Virus record (IMG/VR): IMGVR_UViG_2703718822_000010 | Direction: 5' to 3' (one strand) | From: a virus | Lineage: Duplodnaviria; Heunggongvirae; Uroviricota; Caudoviricetes | Length of the DNA stretch: 64,000 nt | Part shown: piece by piece, positions 5,459-38,921 of the stretch | Numbering within the stretch: the first letter of the stretch is position 1 | How the letters are laid out: each line of letters begins with the position of its first letter | Made by a program: the position numbers and the translations under genes | The notes under the pieces: model-generated | Told to the model about the DNA's origin: nothing | Seen by the model: the letters and a program-made list of their open reading frames with translations, nothing else | The model's database searches: none

Positions 5459-5989
5459 ATGGCTAAACGTGTTACAAAATTAAAGGCCGCAGCCGAGGCT
5501 GCACCGCAGACCCGCGAAGAAGTCAGCCGCGATATCCGCACCCTGGGCGATATTCAGCGAGAGGCGCTGCGGCTGGAAACGGCGATGAATGATGAAGTGG
5601 CAGAAATCACCGCCCGTTATACGCCGCAAATTGAAAACCTTAAAAAAGAAATCAAAGTGCTTTTTAAGGGGATTCAGGACTGGTGCAAAACCAACCGCGA
5701 TGAGCTGACGAACGGCGGCAAAACCAAAACAGCCAATCTGACCACCGGAACGGTGTCATGGCGACTGGGGAATCCATCATGCAGCGTCAGTCGTGATGTG
5801 GAAGGTGTGATTGAAATGCTGCGCCGTATGGGCCTTGAGCGTTTTATCCGCACGAAAGAGGAAGTGAACAAGGAAGCGGTCCTGGCGGAGCCGGATGCGG
5901 TGAAAGGGATTGCCGGTATTAAGGTGAATAAAGGCGCTGAAAGTTTTTATGTCGAGCCTTTTGAACAGGACGCCGGACTGAATAAATAA
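5459..5989 (+). CDS. gam: Gam host-nuclease inhibitor (Ku-like DNA-end binding)
   Basis: 176 aa; LGDIQREALRLETAMNDEVAEIT, CKTNRDELTNGGKTKTANL and LERFIRTKEEVNKEAVL match Mu Gam as recalled. Confidence 0.85.
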   Translation: MAKRVTKLKAAAEAAPQTREEVSRDIRTLGDIQREALRLETAMNDEVAEITARYTPQIENLKKEIKVLFKGIQDWCKTNRDELTNGGKTKTANLTTGTVSWRLGNPSCSVSRDVEGVIEMLRRMGLERFIRTKEEVNKEAVLAEPDAVKGIAGIKVNKGAESFYVEPFEQDAGLNK

Positions 5990-8236: not shown

Positions 8237-8544
8237 TAACGACATTATTTGTTGAATCAGACGAGCCTCTGGTATGTGTCGCCGGAATGTCGGTTTGTGG
8301 CGGAACGCTGACCGGTGTTTATTTCGGGGATTTGCGCGGTTATCCCTGGCATTCACTGGATGACGCATTTCCGCCTGATATGGAGGCTGTCGTGCTGATT
8401 GTTCAGTATGGTGACCAACAGGAACTGCGCATCGGCCATATGGGGTATGAAGGCTTTTTTATTGATGAAGAAACCGGAGCCTGCCTTGAAGATGAGGACG
8501 GACAGGTGACGCACTGGTGCCATATTTCAGCTTTACCGGAATGA
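8233..8544 (+). CDS. Hypothetical early protein
   Basis: 103-aa ORF overlapping the upstream stop. Confidence 0.4.
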   Translation: MITTLFVESDEPLVCVAGMSVCGGTLTGVYFGDLRGYPWHSLDDAFPPDMEAVVLIVQYGDQQELRIGHMGYEGFFIDEETGACLEDEDGQVTHWCHISALPE

Positions 8545-8909
8545 CGGGAGGTGAATGCGTGAGAAGTTATATTGATAATGAAAAACTGAAGACAATCAGC
8601 GACTGTCTTAGCTTGCTGGCAAAAATAAAAGAAACCATTGAAGAGATTAAATTTCAGCTTGAATACGAACCCTGTGGCGATGATACATGGCGTAACTCTG
8701 CCAGAAAAGCACTAGCTGTCTTTCAGAAACAACGCCGGACTGTTGAATACCGCCTTGCTGTATTGCGCCAGGAGGAAAAGGAAAGAAATATAAGACGTCA
8801 TGAACTCGTTAATGATTTTCTTGTTCGTGAATTAAAGGAGCGTGTGCCGGAGTCGGTATTTTTTGAGTGTGAGGCTGTTGCCCGTAGCAAAGCACTGGAA
8901 ACTGATTAA
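8541..8909 (+). CDS. Hypothetical early protein
   Basis: ATGA start/stop overlap with the upstream gene; coiled-coil-like. Confidence 0.4.
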   Translation: MTGGECVRSYIDNEKLKTISDCLSLLAKIKETIEEIKFQLEYEPCGDDTWRNSARKALAVFQKQRRTVEYRLAVLRQEEKERNIRRHELVNDFLVRELKERVPESVFFECEAVARSKALETD

Positions 8910-10308: not shown

Positions 10309-10734
10309 ATGGCAGAAACTCAGATGAGCATGTTTGGTGGTGACAGTGAGCAACTGCACGCCCTTATCGACCGCCTTGATGACATCCCTGATGATGTTCT
10401 CAAAAAGAACTGGCCGCGGACCCTGTCAGAACTGGTTGAAGTCACCGGCGCAGAACTTCAGCGTCAGGGGATTGAGCCGGTACTGGCCGGTAAACTGGCA
10501 CGCAAGGTGGCTGCGGCTCAGGCAGCCTATATGGGCGGACGGGGTTATTACCTGCCGGTCGGGGAATCTCTCTTTGCCGAGCTGCGAAACAATGAGATAT
10601 TTTCGCGCTGGGACCGGGGCGAGAAAATTGAATCCCTTCGCCGCCATTACCGGATGTCAGAAACCCAGATTTATACCGTCATACGTGAACAGCGCCGTCT
10701 GCATCTGGCAAGAACGCAACCGCCACTTTTCTGA
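10309..10734 (+). CDS. Mor/C-family transcription activator
   Basis: 141 aa immediately upstream of the endolysin; only one Mor/C-family member is present. Confidence 0.7.
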   Translation: MAETQMSMFGGDSEQLHALIDRLDDIPDDVLKKNWPRTLSELVEVTGAELQRQGIEPVLAGKLARKVAAAQAAYMGGRGYYLPVGESLFAELRNNEIFSRWDRGEKIESLRRHYRMSETQIYTVIREQRRLHLARTQPPLF

Positions 10735-10805
10735 TATTCCGCAAAGCCTGCCGCCTTTCCTTCACCGTTACGCTGACTCAGAGAACATCATGAGACAGCG
10801 TAACA

Positions 10806-17936: not shown

Positions 17937-17940
17937 CGGT

Positions 17941-18024
17941 CAGTGGCGGGGGTCGAACCCGCATACATGATCCACCCGGAGGCAGGCACCGACTTTACCA
18001 GTTAAGCGTACACTGACCGCCTGT
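17941..18024 (-). other. tRNA-like element (degenerate)
   Basis: Minus-strand RNA has a 7-bp acceptor stem GTCAGTG/CACTGAC, U8-A9, a D-loop with GG and a T-arm GCGGG-TTCGACC-CCCGC, but no canonical anticodon stem and no encoded CCA. Confidence 0.3.
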
Positions 18025-18531: not shown

Positions 18532-18707
18532 TTGTTTAAGGTATGCAAATGCATTACCTTACCCCCTTCAGGCGCGTGTCGTGATTTTCTAACCTGAATT
18601 TAACGGGCTTTAAAATCTGCGTGAAGCGCCTTTGTATTTTTCCCCTGAAAGCACTTCCTGAAATCCCGCAAAACCCGCCCTGAAAATTCCCGGCCTATGC
18701 TGCCGGA
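18532..18707. promoter_or_regulatory. Candidate strong gyrase site (central G-I intergenic region)
   Basis: 176-bp non-coding gap between G-like and I-like genes, the position of the Mu SGS; motif not verified. Confidence 0.3.
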
Positions 18708-34790: not shown

Positions 34791-36800
34791 ATGACGTCCA
34801 AATGGGTTCAACTATCATCAATGCCCGGAAACTTTACTGTTAAAGTTTCCGGTGGTACAGCGGCATTTCTTGAGGCTCCCTTTCCTCCGGCCGAAACAAA
34901 AGGAGGAATGACATTTGCTGACTGTCTCATCAGTTTTAATACACGGGATTGCCTGTGGGTAAGGCCAGTATCCGGTGATCCGAGTGTGGAAATTACCGGA
35001 GCGGGTATTGGTGCGGTCATTCCGTTAAGTGCTGATGTTGCCGGTACTGCTGAACCGTCAGACTGGGATAATGCTGAAACACATACCCGTCCGTCAGGAA
35101 ATGAAACTGCTTCCAGCTCCCCTTCCTGGTATTACGTGGTGGTTCTTGCTGGTCAGTCAAACGGTATGGCTTACGGTGAAGGTCTGCCACTGCCGGAGAC
35201 ATATGACCGCCCCGAACCGCGTATTATGCAGTTAGCCCGTCGCAGTACAGTCACGCCGGGAGGTAAAGCCTGTCAGTATAACGACATCATTCTGGCCGAC
35301 CACTGTCTGCATGATGTGCAGGATATGAGTGGAAAAAATCACCCGAAAGCGGATGTGGCTAAAGGGCAATATGGCACCGTGGGTCAGGGGCTTCACATTG
35401 CCAAAAAACTGCTGCCGTTTATTCCGGCAGATGCGGGGATTCTGCTGGTTCCCTGCTGCCGTGGTGGTTCTGCATTCACGGCGGGTGCTGACGGCACGTA
35501 CAGTGACAGCACGGGTGCTTCAGAGGACTCAGCCCGCTGGGGTGTGGATAAGCCGCTGTATAAGGACTTAATCAGCCGGACAAAAGCGGCACTGGCGAAG
35601 AACCCGAAAAACCGCCTGCTTGCTGTGGTGTGGATGCAGGGCGAGTTTGATATTGATGCGAAGCCGACGGAGCATTCTGCGCTGTTTCTGGCGATGGTGG
35701 AAAAATTCCGCGCAGACCTGGCTGAACAGGCGGAACAGTGTACCGGTGGCAGTGCTGCTGGCGTTCCGTGGATTTGTGGCGATACCACGTATTTCTGGAA
35801 ACAGAAAAATGAACCAGCATACCAGGCAATCTATGGCGGCTACAAAAACAAAACAGATAAAAACATTCATTTCGTTCCATTAATGACAGATGAAAATGGC
35901 GTGAATGTACCCACCAACAATCCGGCAGAAGACCCGGATATTGAATCCATTGGTTATTACGGCTCAACGTGGCGTAACAGTGCCGCTACCTGGACATCTG
36001 CGGACCGGGCCAGCCATTTCAGTGCCTGGGCGCGCCGGGGTATTATTTCTGACCGTCTGGCCACGGCTGTTCTGACTCATGCAGGGCGAACCACAGTAAA
36101 AGCCGATGTTCCATCTTCTGAAACTGAAGCAGTAACCACAACACTGCTGTCTTACCGTGTCAGTGAGTCAGAAGGAAATCTGAAAGCCCAGGGCTGGGAG
36201 CCGGCTGGCGGTAAAGCTGAAATTATCAGTGATGCAGGAGGCACAGGTGGTAAGGCAATGAAACTGACCAAGGAAACAGGTAAATCATCCTGGTATCTGG
36301 ATCATGATGCCGGTACTGGTGCTGAACTGCTGAAAAATGGTGGTTTAATCAGTTGTCGTTTTAAAGTACCTGGCGACCTGGTGGCAAACCAGTATGTCAT
36401 GGCGCTTTACTGGCCGGTTTCCTCTCTGCCGCAGGGTGTCACCCTGACAGGGGATGCAGGGAATAATCTGCTGGCATCGTTCTACATCCAGACAGACGCA
36501 AAAGACCTGAATGTGATGTACCACAATGCAAAAGTGGCAACAAATAACCAGAAACTGGGAACCTTTGGTGCATTTGATAATGAATGGCATACGCTGGCCT
36601 TCCGTTTTGCAGGAAATAACAGCCTTCAGGTTATTCCGGTTATTGATGGTCAGGATGGTGCCGCGTTTACCCTGACGCAGTCACCAGTAGGAACTTTCCC
36701 GGTGGACAAACTCCGCGTAACGGATATCACCAAAAATGCAACTTACCCGGTGCTGATTGACAGCATTGTGGTGGAAGTGAAAAAAGCGGTAACAGAATAA
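34791..36800 (+). CDS. NanS-p-like sialate O-acetylesterase (SGNH/SASA domain) with C-terminal beta-rich domain
   Basis: 669 aa; VVVLAGQSNGMAYGEG motif characteristic of the SASA esterase family. Confidence 0.55.
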   Translation: MTSKWVQLSSMPGNFTVKVSGGTAAFLEAPFPPAETKGGMTFADCLISFNTRDCLWVRPVSGDPSVEITGAGIGAVIPLSADVAGTAEPSDWDNAETHTRPSGNETASSSPSWYYVVVLAGQSNGMAYGEGLPLPETYDRPEPRIMQLARRSTVTPGGKACQYNDIILADHCLHDVQDMSGKNHPKADVAKGQYGTVGQGLHIAKKLLPFIPADAGILLVPCCRGGSAFTAGADGTYSDSTGASEDSARWGVDKPLYKDLISRTKAALAKNPKNRLLAVVWMQGEFDIDAKPTEHSALFLAMVEKFRADLAEQAEQCTGGSAAGVPWICGDTTYFWKQKNEPAYQAIYGGYKNKTDKNIHFVPLMTDENGVNVPTNNPAEDPDIESIGYYGSTWRNSAATWTSADRASHFSAWARRGIISDRLATAVLTHAGRTTVKADVPSSETEAVTTTLLSYRVSESEGNLKAQGWEPAGGKAEIISDAGGTGGKAMKLTKETGKSSWYLDHDAGTGAELLKNGGLISCRFKVPGDLVANQYVMALYWPVSSLPQGVTLTGDAGNNLLASFYIQTDAKDLNVMYHNAKVATNNQKLGTFGAFDNEWHTLAFRFAGNNSLQVIPVIDGQDGAAFTLTQSPVGTFPVDKLRVTDITKNATYPVLIDSIVVEVKKAVTE

Positions 36801-36946
36801 AAAAATCCCGCCGGTCATGATATGGCTGGCGGGAGCTACCTAACCCATAAAGGAAAATAAAAATACTCCCGAAGGAGTGGTTATCAGTCGCTTCGATGTT
36901 TTTACCCGATAACGAATTATGTAGTCAATATCAAAGGTAAGGTTAT

Positions 36947-37129
36947 ATGACATTCGTTCATACAATGCTGCTTTATTTCTGCGCTGTGGTCAGTGCGTTA
37001 TATCTGGTGAGCGGCGGTTATAAGGTCATCAGAAATTATATTCGCCGTAAAATTGATGATGCGGCAGCTGAAAAACTCAGTAAAACAGCACAGGCACCGT
37101 CATCCCCAAACGACCCGACCCCGCTCTGA
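36947..37129 (+). CDS. Small membrane protein
   Basis: 60 aa with an N-terminal hydrophobic helix. Confidence 0.35.
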   Translation: MTFVHTMLLYFCAVVSALYLVSGGYKVIRNYIRRKIDDAAAEKLSKTAQAPSSPNDPTPL

Positions 37130-37164
37130 TAACGGGGCAATATACCTGCAAAAGGAGAATATTC

Positions 37165-37410
37165 ATGCCAGAGATTAAAGGCACGGTTACTGAAGAGCTT
37201 GTCAAACAGGCACTTTATTCTGAAGAAGTGAACCGCGTGCTGAAGGCGCAGGTTCGCAAGGATTTTGAGGCACAAATCGACGCATATGTTGATGAAGTGC
37301 TGGCCCGAATGGTTGGCCGTTCTCCGGCTGAAAACAGCACGGAAAATGATCCTCAACCCGTAGAGCAACCAGAGCCGGTTCAGCCCGGAACTGACGGTAC
37401 TATGATGTAA
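37165..37410 (+). CDS. Hypothetical small acidic protein
   Basis: 81 aa with upstream AAGGAG Shine-Dalgarno. Confidence 0.4.
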   Translation: MPEIKGTVTEELVKQALYSEEVNRVLKAQVRKDFEAQIDAYVDEVLARMVGRSPAENSTENDPQPVEQPEPVQPGTDGTMM

Positions 37411-37418
37411 CAATACCG

Positions 37419-37450
37419 ACCGGCAGGTTTCCCTGCCGGGTGAGTTTGTT
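37419..37450 (+). terminator. Rho-independent terminator candidate
   Basis: CGGCAGG-TTTC-CCTGCCG hairpin followed by a T-rich tract. Confidence 0.4.
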
Positions 37451-37499
37451 AATGCACGTTTTGTGTATTTTCCCTCCTGGGAGAACAGGCAGGACATAT

Positions 37500-38029
37500 C
37501 AGCATCCTGAAACAGGAAGCATTTTTGGGTTTGTATGTCTTGCCATTTTGAGATCGAGAACGGCGATAGATGAGCTGTAAGGGAGTCTTACAGGCAGGGC
37601 AAACAGGCTCTTTCATCCATGATAAAGATCTCCTTTTTATGCATCTCTGCTTTACAGGAGACTGGGGAATATCATAGGATACGCCACGAGCTCGAAGTAA
37701 AGCATTGATGCAAAATTGTCTAAATCGGCCCAGAATAGTTCGCGCTATCTGGGTCGCTCTTTATGTATGTAGTATCCCATTGATTTGAAACATACTACAT
37801 ATACGCGCGATCCTACCTTCACTATATAAAAAGTCAATAAAATGATCATTTTATGATCGTTTTCACCACCTAACTCTTCGTTTTCTTTAAGTAAATAATC
37901 ACCTACCTGAATCATTGTTGATGACTTTTCAATCTATTTGTTGTATCAATTAAACAAATCGAATCGATCGTTTTTGTCGATCGATTGCATGAGAAAGGCA
38001 TCAACAACAAAGCAGGAGGTTATGCGGCC
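37500..38029 (+). promoter_or_regulatory. com-mom upstream regulatory region with GATC cluster and palindrome
   Basis: GATC sites near 37552, 37627, 37809, 37843, 37855, 37966 and 37979; perfect inverted repeat ATCGATCG-N7-CGATCGAT at 37962-37984. Confidence 0.45.
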
Positions 38030-38230
38030 ATGTATCGAAACATACGGTGCCGACACTGCAATAAGCTACTGGCACGGGCCAGTTTCAGTTATCTGGAAGT
38101 AAAATGTCCGCGCTGTAAAACCCTCAATCAAATCACATCTCCGAGCGCCACAGAGCACCCCACATACACAAGGAAATCCTGTCGTGGGGAACAGAAAGCA
38201 AGTCACATCCCGAATCATCAGCACGCCTGA
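38030..38230 (+). CDS. com: Com zinc-finger translational activator of mom
   Basis: [10 protein letters not shown]...KCPRCK matches Mu Com IRCKNCNKLL...RCPRCK as recalled; AGGAGG Shine-Dalgarno; overlaps the next gene. Confidence 0.8.
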
Positions 38231-38921
38231 ACTTATTCGCTATAACGACAATATCGTTGGTTATGGCTCCCGTGAGTTGCGGGTTGAGACAATAAGTTGC
38301 TGGCTGGCCAGACTGGTCATCGTCAATAAACATTACAGCCACCGTTTCGTAAATAACTCCTACCTTCATCTGGGCATATTTTCAGAACGGGAACTTGTTG
38401 GCGTAATGCAATGGGGTTACGCCCTTAACCCAAACAGTGGTGCACGCGTCGTAACGGGTACGCAGAACCGAGAATATATGGAGCTTAACCGGCTATGGCT
38501 GCATGACTGTATGCCGAGAAACTCCGAATCAAGGGCAATCAGTTACGCGCTCAAGCTAATCAGGCAGCTTTATCCGCAGGTACAGTGGGTTCAGTCGTTT
38601 GCAGATGAGCGTTGTGGCTGTCTTGGTGTCGTGTATCAGGCAAGCAATTTTGATTATGTAGGCAGCCATGAATCAATATTCTATGAACTTGATGGCGAGT
38701 GGTATCACGAGATTTGCAGGAATGCCATTAAACGAGGCGGACAACGAGGTGAACATCTGAGGGCTAATATTGACAGAGCCAATGTTCATAAGTTCCGACA
38801 GTTTCGTTACATCCGGTTTCTGAACAAGAGGGCCAAAAAACGCCTCAACACAAAGCAATTCAAAGTCCAGCCTTACCCAAAACCACAAACAGTTAAAACT
38901 GGTTTGAAAGAGAGTGAATGA
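38184..38921 (+). CDS. mom: Mom-like DNA modification protein
   Basis: 245-aa ORF with GTG start overlapping com, the arrangement of the Mu mom operon; identity inferred from context. Confidence 0.6.

Follow-up and report, generated by a model that had tools for sequence, protein, structure and literature searches.

The mom gene of phage Mu is the classic example of Dam methylation read out by OxyR and, to our knowledge, has been studied in one phage only. Here we analysed the com-mom locus in a 64-kb stretch of viral DNA (IMG/VR record IMGVR_UViG_2703718822_000010; the whole stretch is called the window below), which carries a Mu-like prophage of the Sp18 type. We concentrated on a palindrome with two GATC sites that lies just upstream of com. 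With a probability of about 0.6, this GATC pair would be the promoter-proximal half of an OxyR operator (approximately 37945-37981) that represses com-mom when unmethylated, with Com gating mom in addition. Our search of the literature turned up neither an analysis of the Sp18-type mom promoter nor a methylome report that covers its GATCs.

In Mu, the GTG start of mom lies inside the 3' end of com (com 5769-5957, mom GTG 5908 in the Mu locus used here, L002), and a hairpin covers the mom start. Three GATCs precede com at -109, -91 and -78, the last two of which (GATC II and III) form a 13-bp pair within an OxyR-like site. At late promoters of Mu, C binds between about -57 and -28 of the promoter. 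The 78 bp between the last GATC and com contain the C-binding dyad TTAT-N6-ATAA, a poor -35 element, a T-run and a TAAGAT -10 element, and the upstream neighbour is gin. The agn43 (flu) gene of E. coli K-12 has a 13-bp GATC pair in a perfect dyad of 9-10 bp with a 7-bp spacer, and a third GATC precedes the pair by 19 bp. Its promoter is strong, and it encodes an adhesin subject to phase variation. In P22 gtr, the sites OxyR(A), ATCGGTAACAACGAT, and OxyR(C), ATCGCTTGTATCGAT, both have the form ATCG-N7-CGAT with a 13-bp GATC pair each. The gtr half-sites bind OxyR only if unmethylated, and the promoter-proximal GATC pair overlaps the -35 region (PMC2909390). Three half-sites, 17 bp apart, and four GATCs give gtr alternative activating and repressing OxyR positions. 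Finally, com also leads methyltransferase cassettes in Mu-like phages (B3, FluMu, Pnm1) and in the P2-like phage Chuche, where an overlapping modification gene starts at GUG under the same hairpin (PMC3299994).

The locus in the window shares with Mu the gene order, the com/mom overlap, the GTG start, the hairpin over the mom start, and a 13-bp GATC pair that occupies an OxyR-like site in the same register. It has two GATCs instead of three, however, and the pair is located at -64/-51 rather than -91/-78, 27 bp nearer com. The gap to com is thus reduced from 78 to 51 bp, and neither the C-binding dyad nor the T-run and TAAGAT of Mu is found in the window. In place of gin, the upstream neighbours are a divergent pseudogene and a cargo block of the lambdoid type. 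With agn43 the locus shares a near-identical core, the perfect dyad, the 7-bp spacer and the 13-bp GATC spacing, but here the downstream operon is one of DNA modification, known from its sequence. Unlike gtr, the window has a single GATC-bearing half-site, with a distance of 7 bp between half-sites.

The GATC palindrome and the putative OxyR operator

An inverted-repeat search located a perfect palindrome, AATCGATCG-N7-CGATCGATT, at 37962-37986, with 8-bp arms at 37963-37970 and 37978-37985. The initial annotation had reported this palindrome at 37962-37984; it is real, and each arm is one base longer. The window has about nine distinct inverted repeats of this perfect, hairpin-type kind (arms of 9 bp or more), this one included. 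They account for 13 overlapping hits, where shuffled sequence would give 1.6. Inside the palindrome, ATCG (37967-37970) and CGAT (37978-37981) are separated by 7 bp, with both GATCs within, and this dyad fits the OxyR dimer form ATAG-N7-CTAT. The two Dam targets are at 37966-37969, which is -64 from the com ATG, and at 37979-37982, which is -51. They constitute the only GATC pair with 13-bp spacing in the 64 kb. The closest resemblance was to the agn43 operator. The core ATCGATCG-TTTTTGT-CGATCGAT and its agn43 counterpart ATCGATCG-TTTATAT-CGATCGAT have 20 of 23 bases in common, and the differences are confined to the spacer.

OxyR sites were scanned by counting matches to the consensus of two half-sites 7 bp apart (20 positions). 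In the Mu/agn43 register the best site was ATCAATTAAACAAAT-CGAATCG-ATCGTTTTTGTCGAT at 37945-37981, a putative OxyR tetramer site that matched the consensus at 13 of 20 positions (6+7). The same count gave 13/20 for the Mu mom site and 14/20 for agn43. Four of the seven best matches in the 64 kb (at least 13/20) fell in 37914-37981, three of them within the 114-bp intergenic region upstream of com. When the intergenic region was shuffled with its dinucleotides preserved, 13/20 was reached in 2% of cases.

The GATC cluster and the upstream pseudogene

The initial annotation had stressed a cluster of at least seven GATCs upstream of com, among them a close pair at 37843 and 37855. All seven sites exist (37552, 37627, 37809, 37844, 37855, 37966 and 37979), and the first member of the close pair is at 37844. 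Seven sites in 428 bp place the region in the top 1% of 550-bp sliding windows in the 64 kb. This density of 7 per 550 bp is the maximum in the window, but it is also reached at three other places. Moreover, the first five sites, the close pair included, lie inside the coding sequence of a minus-strand gene, a frameshifted copy (37449-37915) of a 154-aa phage gene of unknown function (phrog_26524, PHROG match E=2.5e-52). This gene is divergent from com. Its alignment shows +3/-1 indels, its RefSeq relatives are annotated as 'frameshifted', and an intact copy is present in one of the compared loci (L041).

Other E. coli com-mom prophages (H52/H53) have a different upstream gene, and their homology begins only at window position 37921. 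In locus L007 the upstream DNA is replaced by unrelated sequence, in which the sole other GATC is at -133. Since five GATCs are in the pseudogene and relatives share homology from 37921 only, we delimited the com-proximal regulatory module to the divergent intergenic region of 114 bp, 37916-38029, which has conserved blocks in 12 distinct sequences from 31 loci. Its only GATCs are the palindrome pair. The five pseudogene sites fall outside the conserved switch because other com-mom prophages lack that DNA. The seven-site cluster was therefore rejected as one unit, with three places equally dense and five sites in a pseudogene that not all relatives have. The GATC feature beyond chance is the pair 37966/37979, not the seven-site density, and on this comparison no Dam targets upstream of com other than the two palindrome GATCs are conserved.

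The pseudogene has a peculiarity of its own. At 37729-37753 it contains an inverted repeat, CCCAGAATAG...CTATCTGGG, where strains with the intact gene have a perfect 10-bp repeat of another sequence, CCCAGCATAG...CTATGCTGGG. The repeat lies in the one patch where the gene has diverged; elsewhere it is 98% identical.

Conservation of the operator among com loci

We compared Com-encoding loci from species-representative genomes and viral contigs. Window-type loci (class A) numbered 31, with 12 distinct sequences. In all 31 the palindrome, the block TATTTGTTGTATCAATT and an ATGAC motif were invariant, while the 12-15 bp 3' of the palindrome varied freely and tolerated a 6-bp insertion. In the window this hypervariable spacer directly 3' of the palindrome occupies 37987-38003 on the plus strand.

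The GATC pair was also found in front of com genes that are followed by other enzymes. Cassettes of the Citrobacter type, in which com precedes a C5 cytosine methylase, have a GATC pair at -64/-51 or -65/-52 before com. P2-like prophages of E. coli and Salmonella, in which com precedes an N6 methylase (e.g. Escherichia phage Chuche), have GATCs at -82, -64 and -51. Another com-mom contig (L111) has a GATC triplet with the 18/13-bp spacing of Mu. Thus the GATC operator of the enteric com-methyltransferase cassettes and its distance from com are as in the window, although these cassettes encode an N6 or C5 methyltransferase in place of Mom. Judged from these alignments, the operator is a conserved companion of com in enteric phages, whichever enzyme follows. 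The com loci of Haemophilus, Pseudomonas, Acinetobacter and others in the comparison set had no upstream GATC pair. Because the pair is absent from these loci outside Enterobacterales, the operator is not universal in com cassettes.

The exchange of the enzyme gene could be followed in detail. Some Mu-like prophages that are nearly identical in other respects have, instead of mom, a gene for a 350-aa C5 cytosine methyltransferase (Pfam DNA_methylase, E=2e-42), as at L006 4784-5836 (LC727895) and in L012, L064, L066 and L069. The methyltransferase begins at the same GTG with the same hairpin, and homology to the window (38184-38197) ends 13 nt past the GTG. This end of homology places the boundary between the mom and C5 cassettes just past the Com-controlled start.

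The P2-like loci carry com with an N6/N4-type methyltransferase beside ogr and a hok-like gene (L009 2900-3921 from E. coli 2014C-3075, L013, L039 from Chuche, and L072-L096). There, three GATCGAT sites lie in a 15/20 match to the OxyR consensus over a strong extended -10 promoter (TGTTATCAT). This arrangement looks like a Dam/OxyR-switched methylase, and a literature search found no report of such a switch in a P2-like com cassette. One or all of the GATCs are lost in a few P2-like copies (L079, L094, L097 and L014).

Promoter and late activator

Promoters were searched for by a consensus scan and a heuristic sigma-70 position weight matrix (PWM), with frequencies based on published compilations. 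As a control, the PWM recovered the agn43 promoter, TTGTCC-17-TAGAAT, with a score of 13.5, and the predicted start coincided with the annotated isrC 5' end at GATC-I. In the P2-like cassette it identified the extended -10 promoter TCGATA-16-TATCAT (score 10.4), with GATCs in the -35 hexamer and the spacer. The Pmom promoter of Mu was missed by the same scan.

In the window, a weak candidate sigma-70 promoter was found on the plus strand at 37921-37949, with ATGACT (37921-37926) and TATCAA (37944-37949) separated by 17 bp. It scored 5.1 in the window and 6.4 in L007, and both hexamers were invariant or nearly so in the class A alignment. The predicted start is near 37956; counted from it, the operator would extend from about -12 to +25, an arrangement like that of agn43. 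If this candidate is used, the locus also shares with agn43 an operator just downstream of the start. An alternative site is located at -31 from com, in the hypervariable spacer, where some relatives have TATCAA or TATCAT (PWM up to 9.9) and the window has CATCAA. With either candidate promoter, OxyR bound at 37945-37981 would be expected to block RNA polymerase.

We also looked for a site of the late activator. The prophage encodes a C homologue of 141 aa (10309-10734), just upstream of the lysozyme gene, with 39% identity to Mu C and a PHROG assignment as 'late transcriptional activator'. A box CCGCAAARCCYGCC-N16-TAYGCT occurs upstream of lys (10739-10774) and of the head protease gene I (18666-18701) with identical spacing, where 0.06 matches are expected by chance. 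Inferred from these two sites, the box is probably the late promoter of the phage with the binding site of the C homologue. A possible third box inside the N gene (27943) was rejected, as its spacing to any -10 element was wrong. Upstream of com, the box had no match within 3 mismatches, and the Mu C dyad TTAT-N6-ATAA was absent. Action of a Mor/C-family activator at the com-mom promoter, for which the initial annotation had proposed footprinting, is thus not supported, as neither kind of site precedes com.

The com and mom genes and translational control

The reading of a Com zinc finger overlapping a Mom-like frame with a GTG start, as in Mu, proved correct, and public genomes already annotate com-mom. 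The com gene (38030-38230, plus strand) encodes a zinc-ribbon translational activator of 66 aa (Pfam Zn_ribbon_Com, E=1.9e-12). Its product is 47% identical to Mu Com and keeps all the zinc cysteines (C7, C10, C26 and C29, in the arrangement CxxC ... CxxC). A ribosome-binding site, AGGAGG, precedes it at 38014-38019 on the plus strand. The mom gene (38184-38921, plus strand, GTG start) encodes the tRNA(Gly)-dependent adenine-modifying enzyme of 245 aa. The Pfam Mom match (E=2.5e-77) covers the full profile, 1-202 of 202, and identity to Mu Mom is 78% without internal gaps, the insertion region included. Its sequence thus assigns the window protein to the Mom enzymes, which have a GNAT fold with a helix-turn-helix-like insertion and produce N6-carbamoylmethyl-adenine. 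The RefSeq product name for close alleles, 'tRNA(Gly)-dependent adenine aminoacyltransferase Mom', agrees with a recent paper on the Mom mechanism (PMC13219725). The presence of com-mom in Sp18 has been noted before (PMC3299994).

RNA folding predicted a hairpin over the mom start, with CCCCAC (38158-38163) as the 5' arm and GUGGGG (38184-38189) as the 3' arm. Together with the GAGCACCCCAC element it spans 38153-38189 on the plus strand. In the predicted folds the GUG start is part of the 3' arm and the Shine-Dalgarno sequence is in the loop. The same hairpin was predicted in the window, Mu, L006 and L009, with CCCCAC/GUGGGG in all except Mu, which has CCCAC/GUGGG. The element GAGCA(C/U)CCCAC on the 5' side of the hairpin was kept in all four. 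L006 and L009 are com cassettes with enzymes other than Mom, yet they have the same GUG hairpin. Com-dependent translational control therefore looks conserved on these models, with Com binding inferred from Mu.

Prophage setting

The prophage spans approximately 664 to 39049 of the window. The start was taken as the point where homology to a reference prophage copy (strain ECP19-798) begins. At the right end (38922-39049), prophage copies at two other insertion sites cease to be homologous at the boundary 39049/39050, so that mom is the last gene before the prophage end, as in Mu. The annotated neighbours are of the Mu type, including transposase, Gam, Mor/C-family activator, lysis, head, tail and invertase genes. 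E. coli O157:H7 is among the Shiga-toxin strains in which prophages of the Sp18 type occur. A 1.6-kb segment around com-mom was found with at least 90% identity in 233 of 5,426 complete E. coli genomes, and when the 619 bp upstream of com were compared with phage DNA, the matches were only to the same prophage type.

The insertion here interrupts a collagen-repeat tail-fibre gene of another prophage (window 38914-40137, from 39050 onward). In other strains the same prophage is found in ydeN, near mukF and in a fimbrial usher gene, and it is an insert in some Stx phages. Two segments of the window, 1-663 and 8240-8909, did not align to the ECP19-798 prophage copy, a sign that alleles may have been replaced in the early region and at the left (immunity) end. 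Between the invertase gene and com lies a cargo block (34791-37410) of a type that is usual downstream of stx in lambdoid phages. It encodes a 669-aa sialate O-acetylesterase-like protein (SASA + DUF6645), DUF1378 and DUF826. A GC-rich hairpin at 37420-37439, after the block, could terminate both converging genes. Among the head morphogenesis genes, RefSeq annotates a 'tRNA-OTHER' on the minus strand at the position homologous to about 17939-18018, where ARAGORN found no tRNA in the window.

Discussion

The comparison with Mu, agn43 and gtr suggests how the locus may work. When both GATCs are unmethylated, reduced OxyR would bind and block transcription of com-mom. When Dam methylates both, OxyR would be excluded and transcription could proceed, which is the logic of Mu mom, agn43 and P22 gtr. 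Since the stretch from the operator to com offers the late activator C neither space nor a motif, the operator probably overlaps the core promoter or the start of transcription, like the agn43 operator and the repressing site of gtr, and repression would occur by occlusion. Com translated from the same mRNA would then bind the GAGCACCCCAC element and open the hairpin that buries the mom GUG, providing a second gate. Mom would turn DNA adenines into N6-carbamoylmethyl-adenine via glycyl-tRNA. The initial annotation had suggested a Dam switch similar to that of Mu in a different arrangement. For the two palindrome GATCs this view finds support in the sequence, through the Mu II/III spacing, the gtr form and the 20/23 identity to agn43, whereas the other five sites drop out. 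From its sequence, the control of com-mom here would be a rearranged version of the known Dam/OxyR switch and not a new one.

Several observations weigh against this interpretation. The distal half-site is AT-rich and, with 6/10 matches, weak; the overall 13/20 is a modest score, and the consensus shares the high AT content of the region. Mu and agn43 have a third GATC that the window lacks, and the position 18 bp upstream of the pair reads AATT. Two copies of the self-complementary CGATCG always form an inverted repeat, so the palindrome arises in part from its GATC context. In addition, no convincing sigma-70 promoter was found before com, the best PWM scores being 5-6, and the CATCAA at -31 may have weakened the promoter in the window.

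These weaknesses leave room for other explanations. Transcription of com-mom might depend mainly on the C homologue acting at a diverged site, with the Dam/OxyR element as an upstream modulator only. The phage does encode this protein, and the lack of a strong sigma-70 promoter is what such dependence would predict, Pmom of Mu having escaped the same scan. Both forms of the activator site are missing before com, however (for the phage box, with the qualification that it is defined by two sites), and the 27-bp reduction in the GATC-com distance removes the space that C uses in Mu. We regard this alternative as rather unlikely but, given the weak promoter, still a serious one. The palindrome might instead be the operator of another dimeric protein, such as a phage regulator, the product of the divergent 154-aa gene, or SeqA on hemimethylated GATCs, with only a superficial likeness to OxyR sites. 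SeqA affects agn43 switching. The limited consensus score and the weak distal half-site fit this idea, and a divergent intergenic region is the expected place for a local regulator. Nevertheless, the match to the agn43 operator and the register common to Mu and gtr argue for OxyR, and the palindrome is kept with different divergent genes or none (L007, P2-like and Citrobacter types), which speaks against a regulator encoded by a neighbouring gene. A host factor is favoured by the close match to agn43 together with the conservation across gene neighbourhoods, and we consider a different binding protein unlikely.

The palindrome could also act as RNA, either as a 9-bp hairpin in the com leader with an influence on stability or on translation, or as a terminator on the minus strand, the GATCs being incidental. 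Its predicted hairpin has a free energy of -10 to -11 kcal/mol, the minus-strand version was flagged as terminator-like, and the palindrome would be transcribed if the candidate promoter at 37921-37949 were used. However, no U-run follows the plus-strand hairpin, there is no minus-strand gene upstream for it to terminate, and an Rfam search returned nothing relevant. The arms in related classes change via self-complementary GATC units only, which makes support from covariation impossible, and what is kept across divergent cassettes is the GATC spacing, not the stem. An RNA role thus seems distinctly improbable. The suggestion that all seven upstream GATCs form a functional Dam-sensing array draws on their density. 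It conflicts with the equally dense places elsewhere, with the location of five sites in pseudogene coding sequence and with L007, which retains com-mom next to unrelated upstream DNA with one other GATC, and we give it hardly any credence.

If this operator is real, its distribution is of wider interest. It accompanies com in both Mu-like and P2-like prophages and precedes three modification enzymes that are unrelated to one another; in a prophage common in Shiga-toxin-producing E. coli (STEC), it has kept neither the activator site nor the third GATC. Together, com leader, GATC/OxyR operator and GUG hairpin might even be one portable epigenetic cassette serving Mom, an N6 or a C5 methylase in enterobacterial Mu-like and P2-like prophages, with a heritable ON/OFF state in lysogens. 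Heritable states are conceivable, as in agn43 and gtr, because the cassette is without a late-activator site. We put this forward as speculation that is, on present indications, unlikely to be right. Should the switch fail to work without the late activator, the locus would simply be a rearranged copy of the Mu system. If it does work, some lysogens but not others could express Mom or the methylases. Subpopulations would then carry an extra modification over the whole genome, which would amount to a prophage-borne, phase-variable methylome in E. coli and Salmonella, with effects on restriction barriers, on phage spread among Shiga-toxin strains and on the reading of methylome data.

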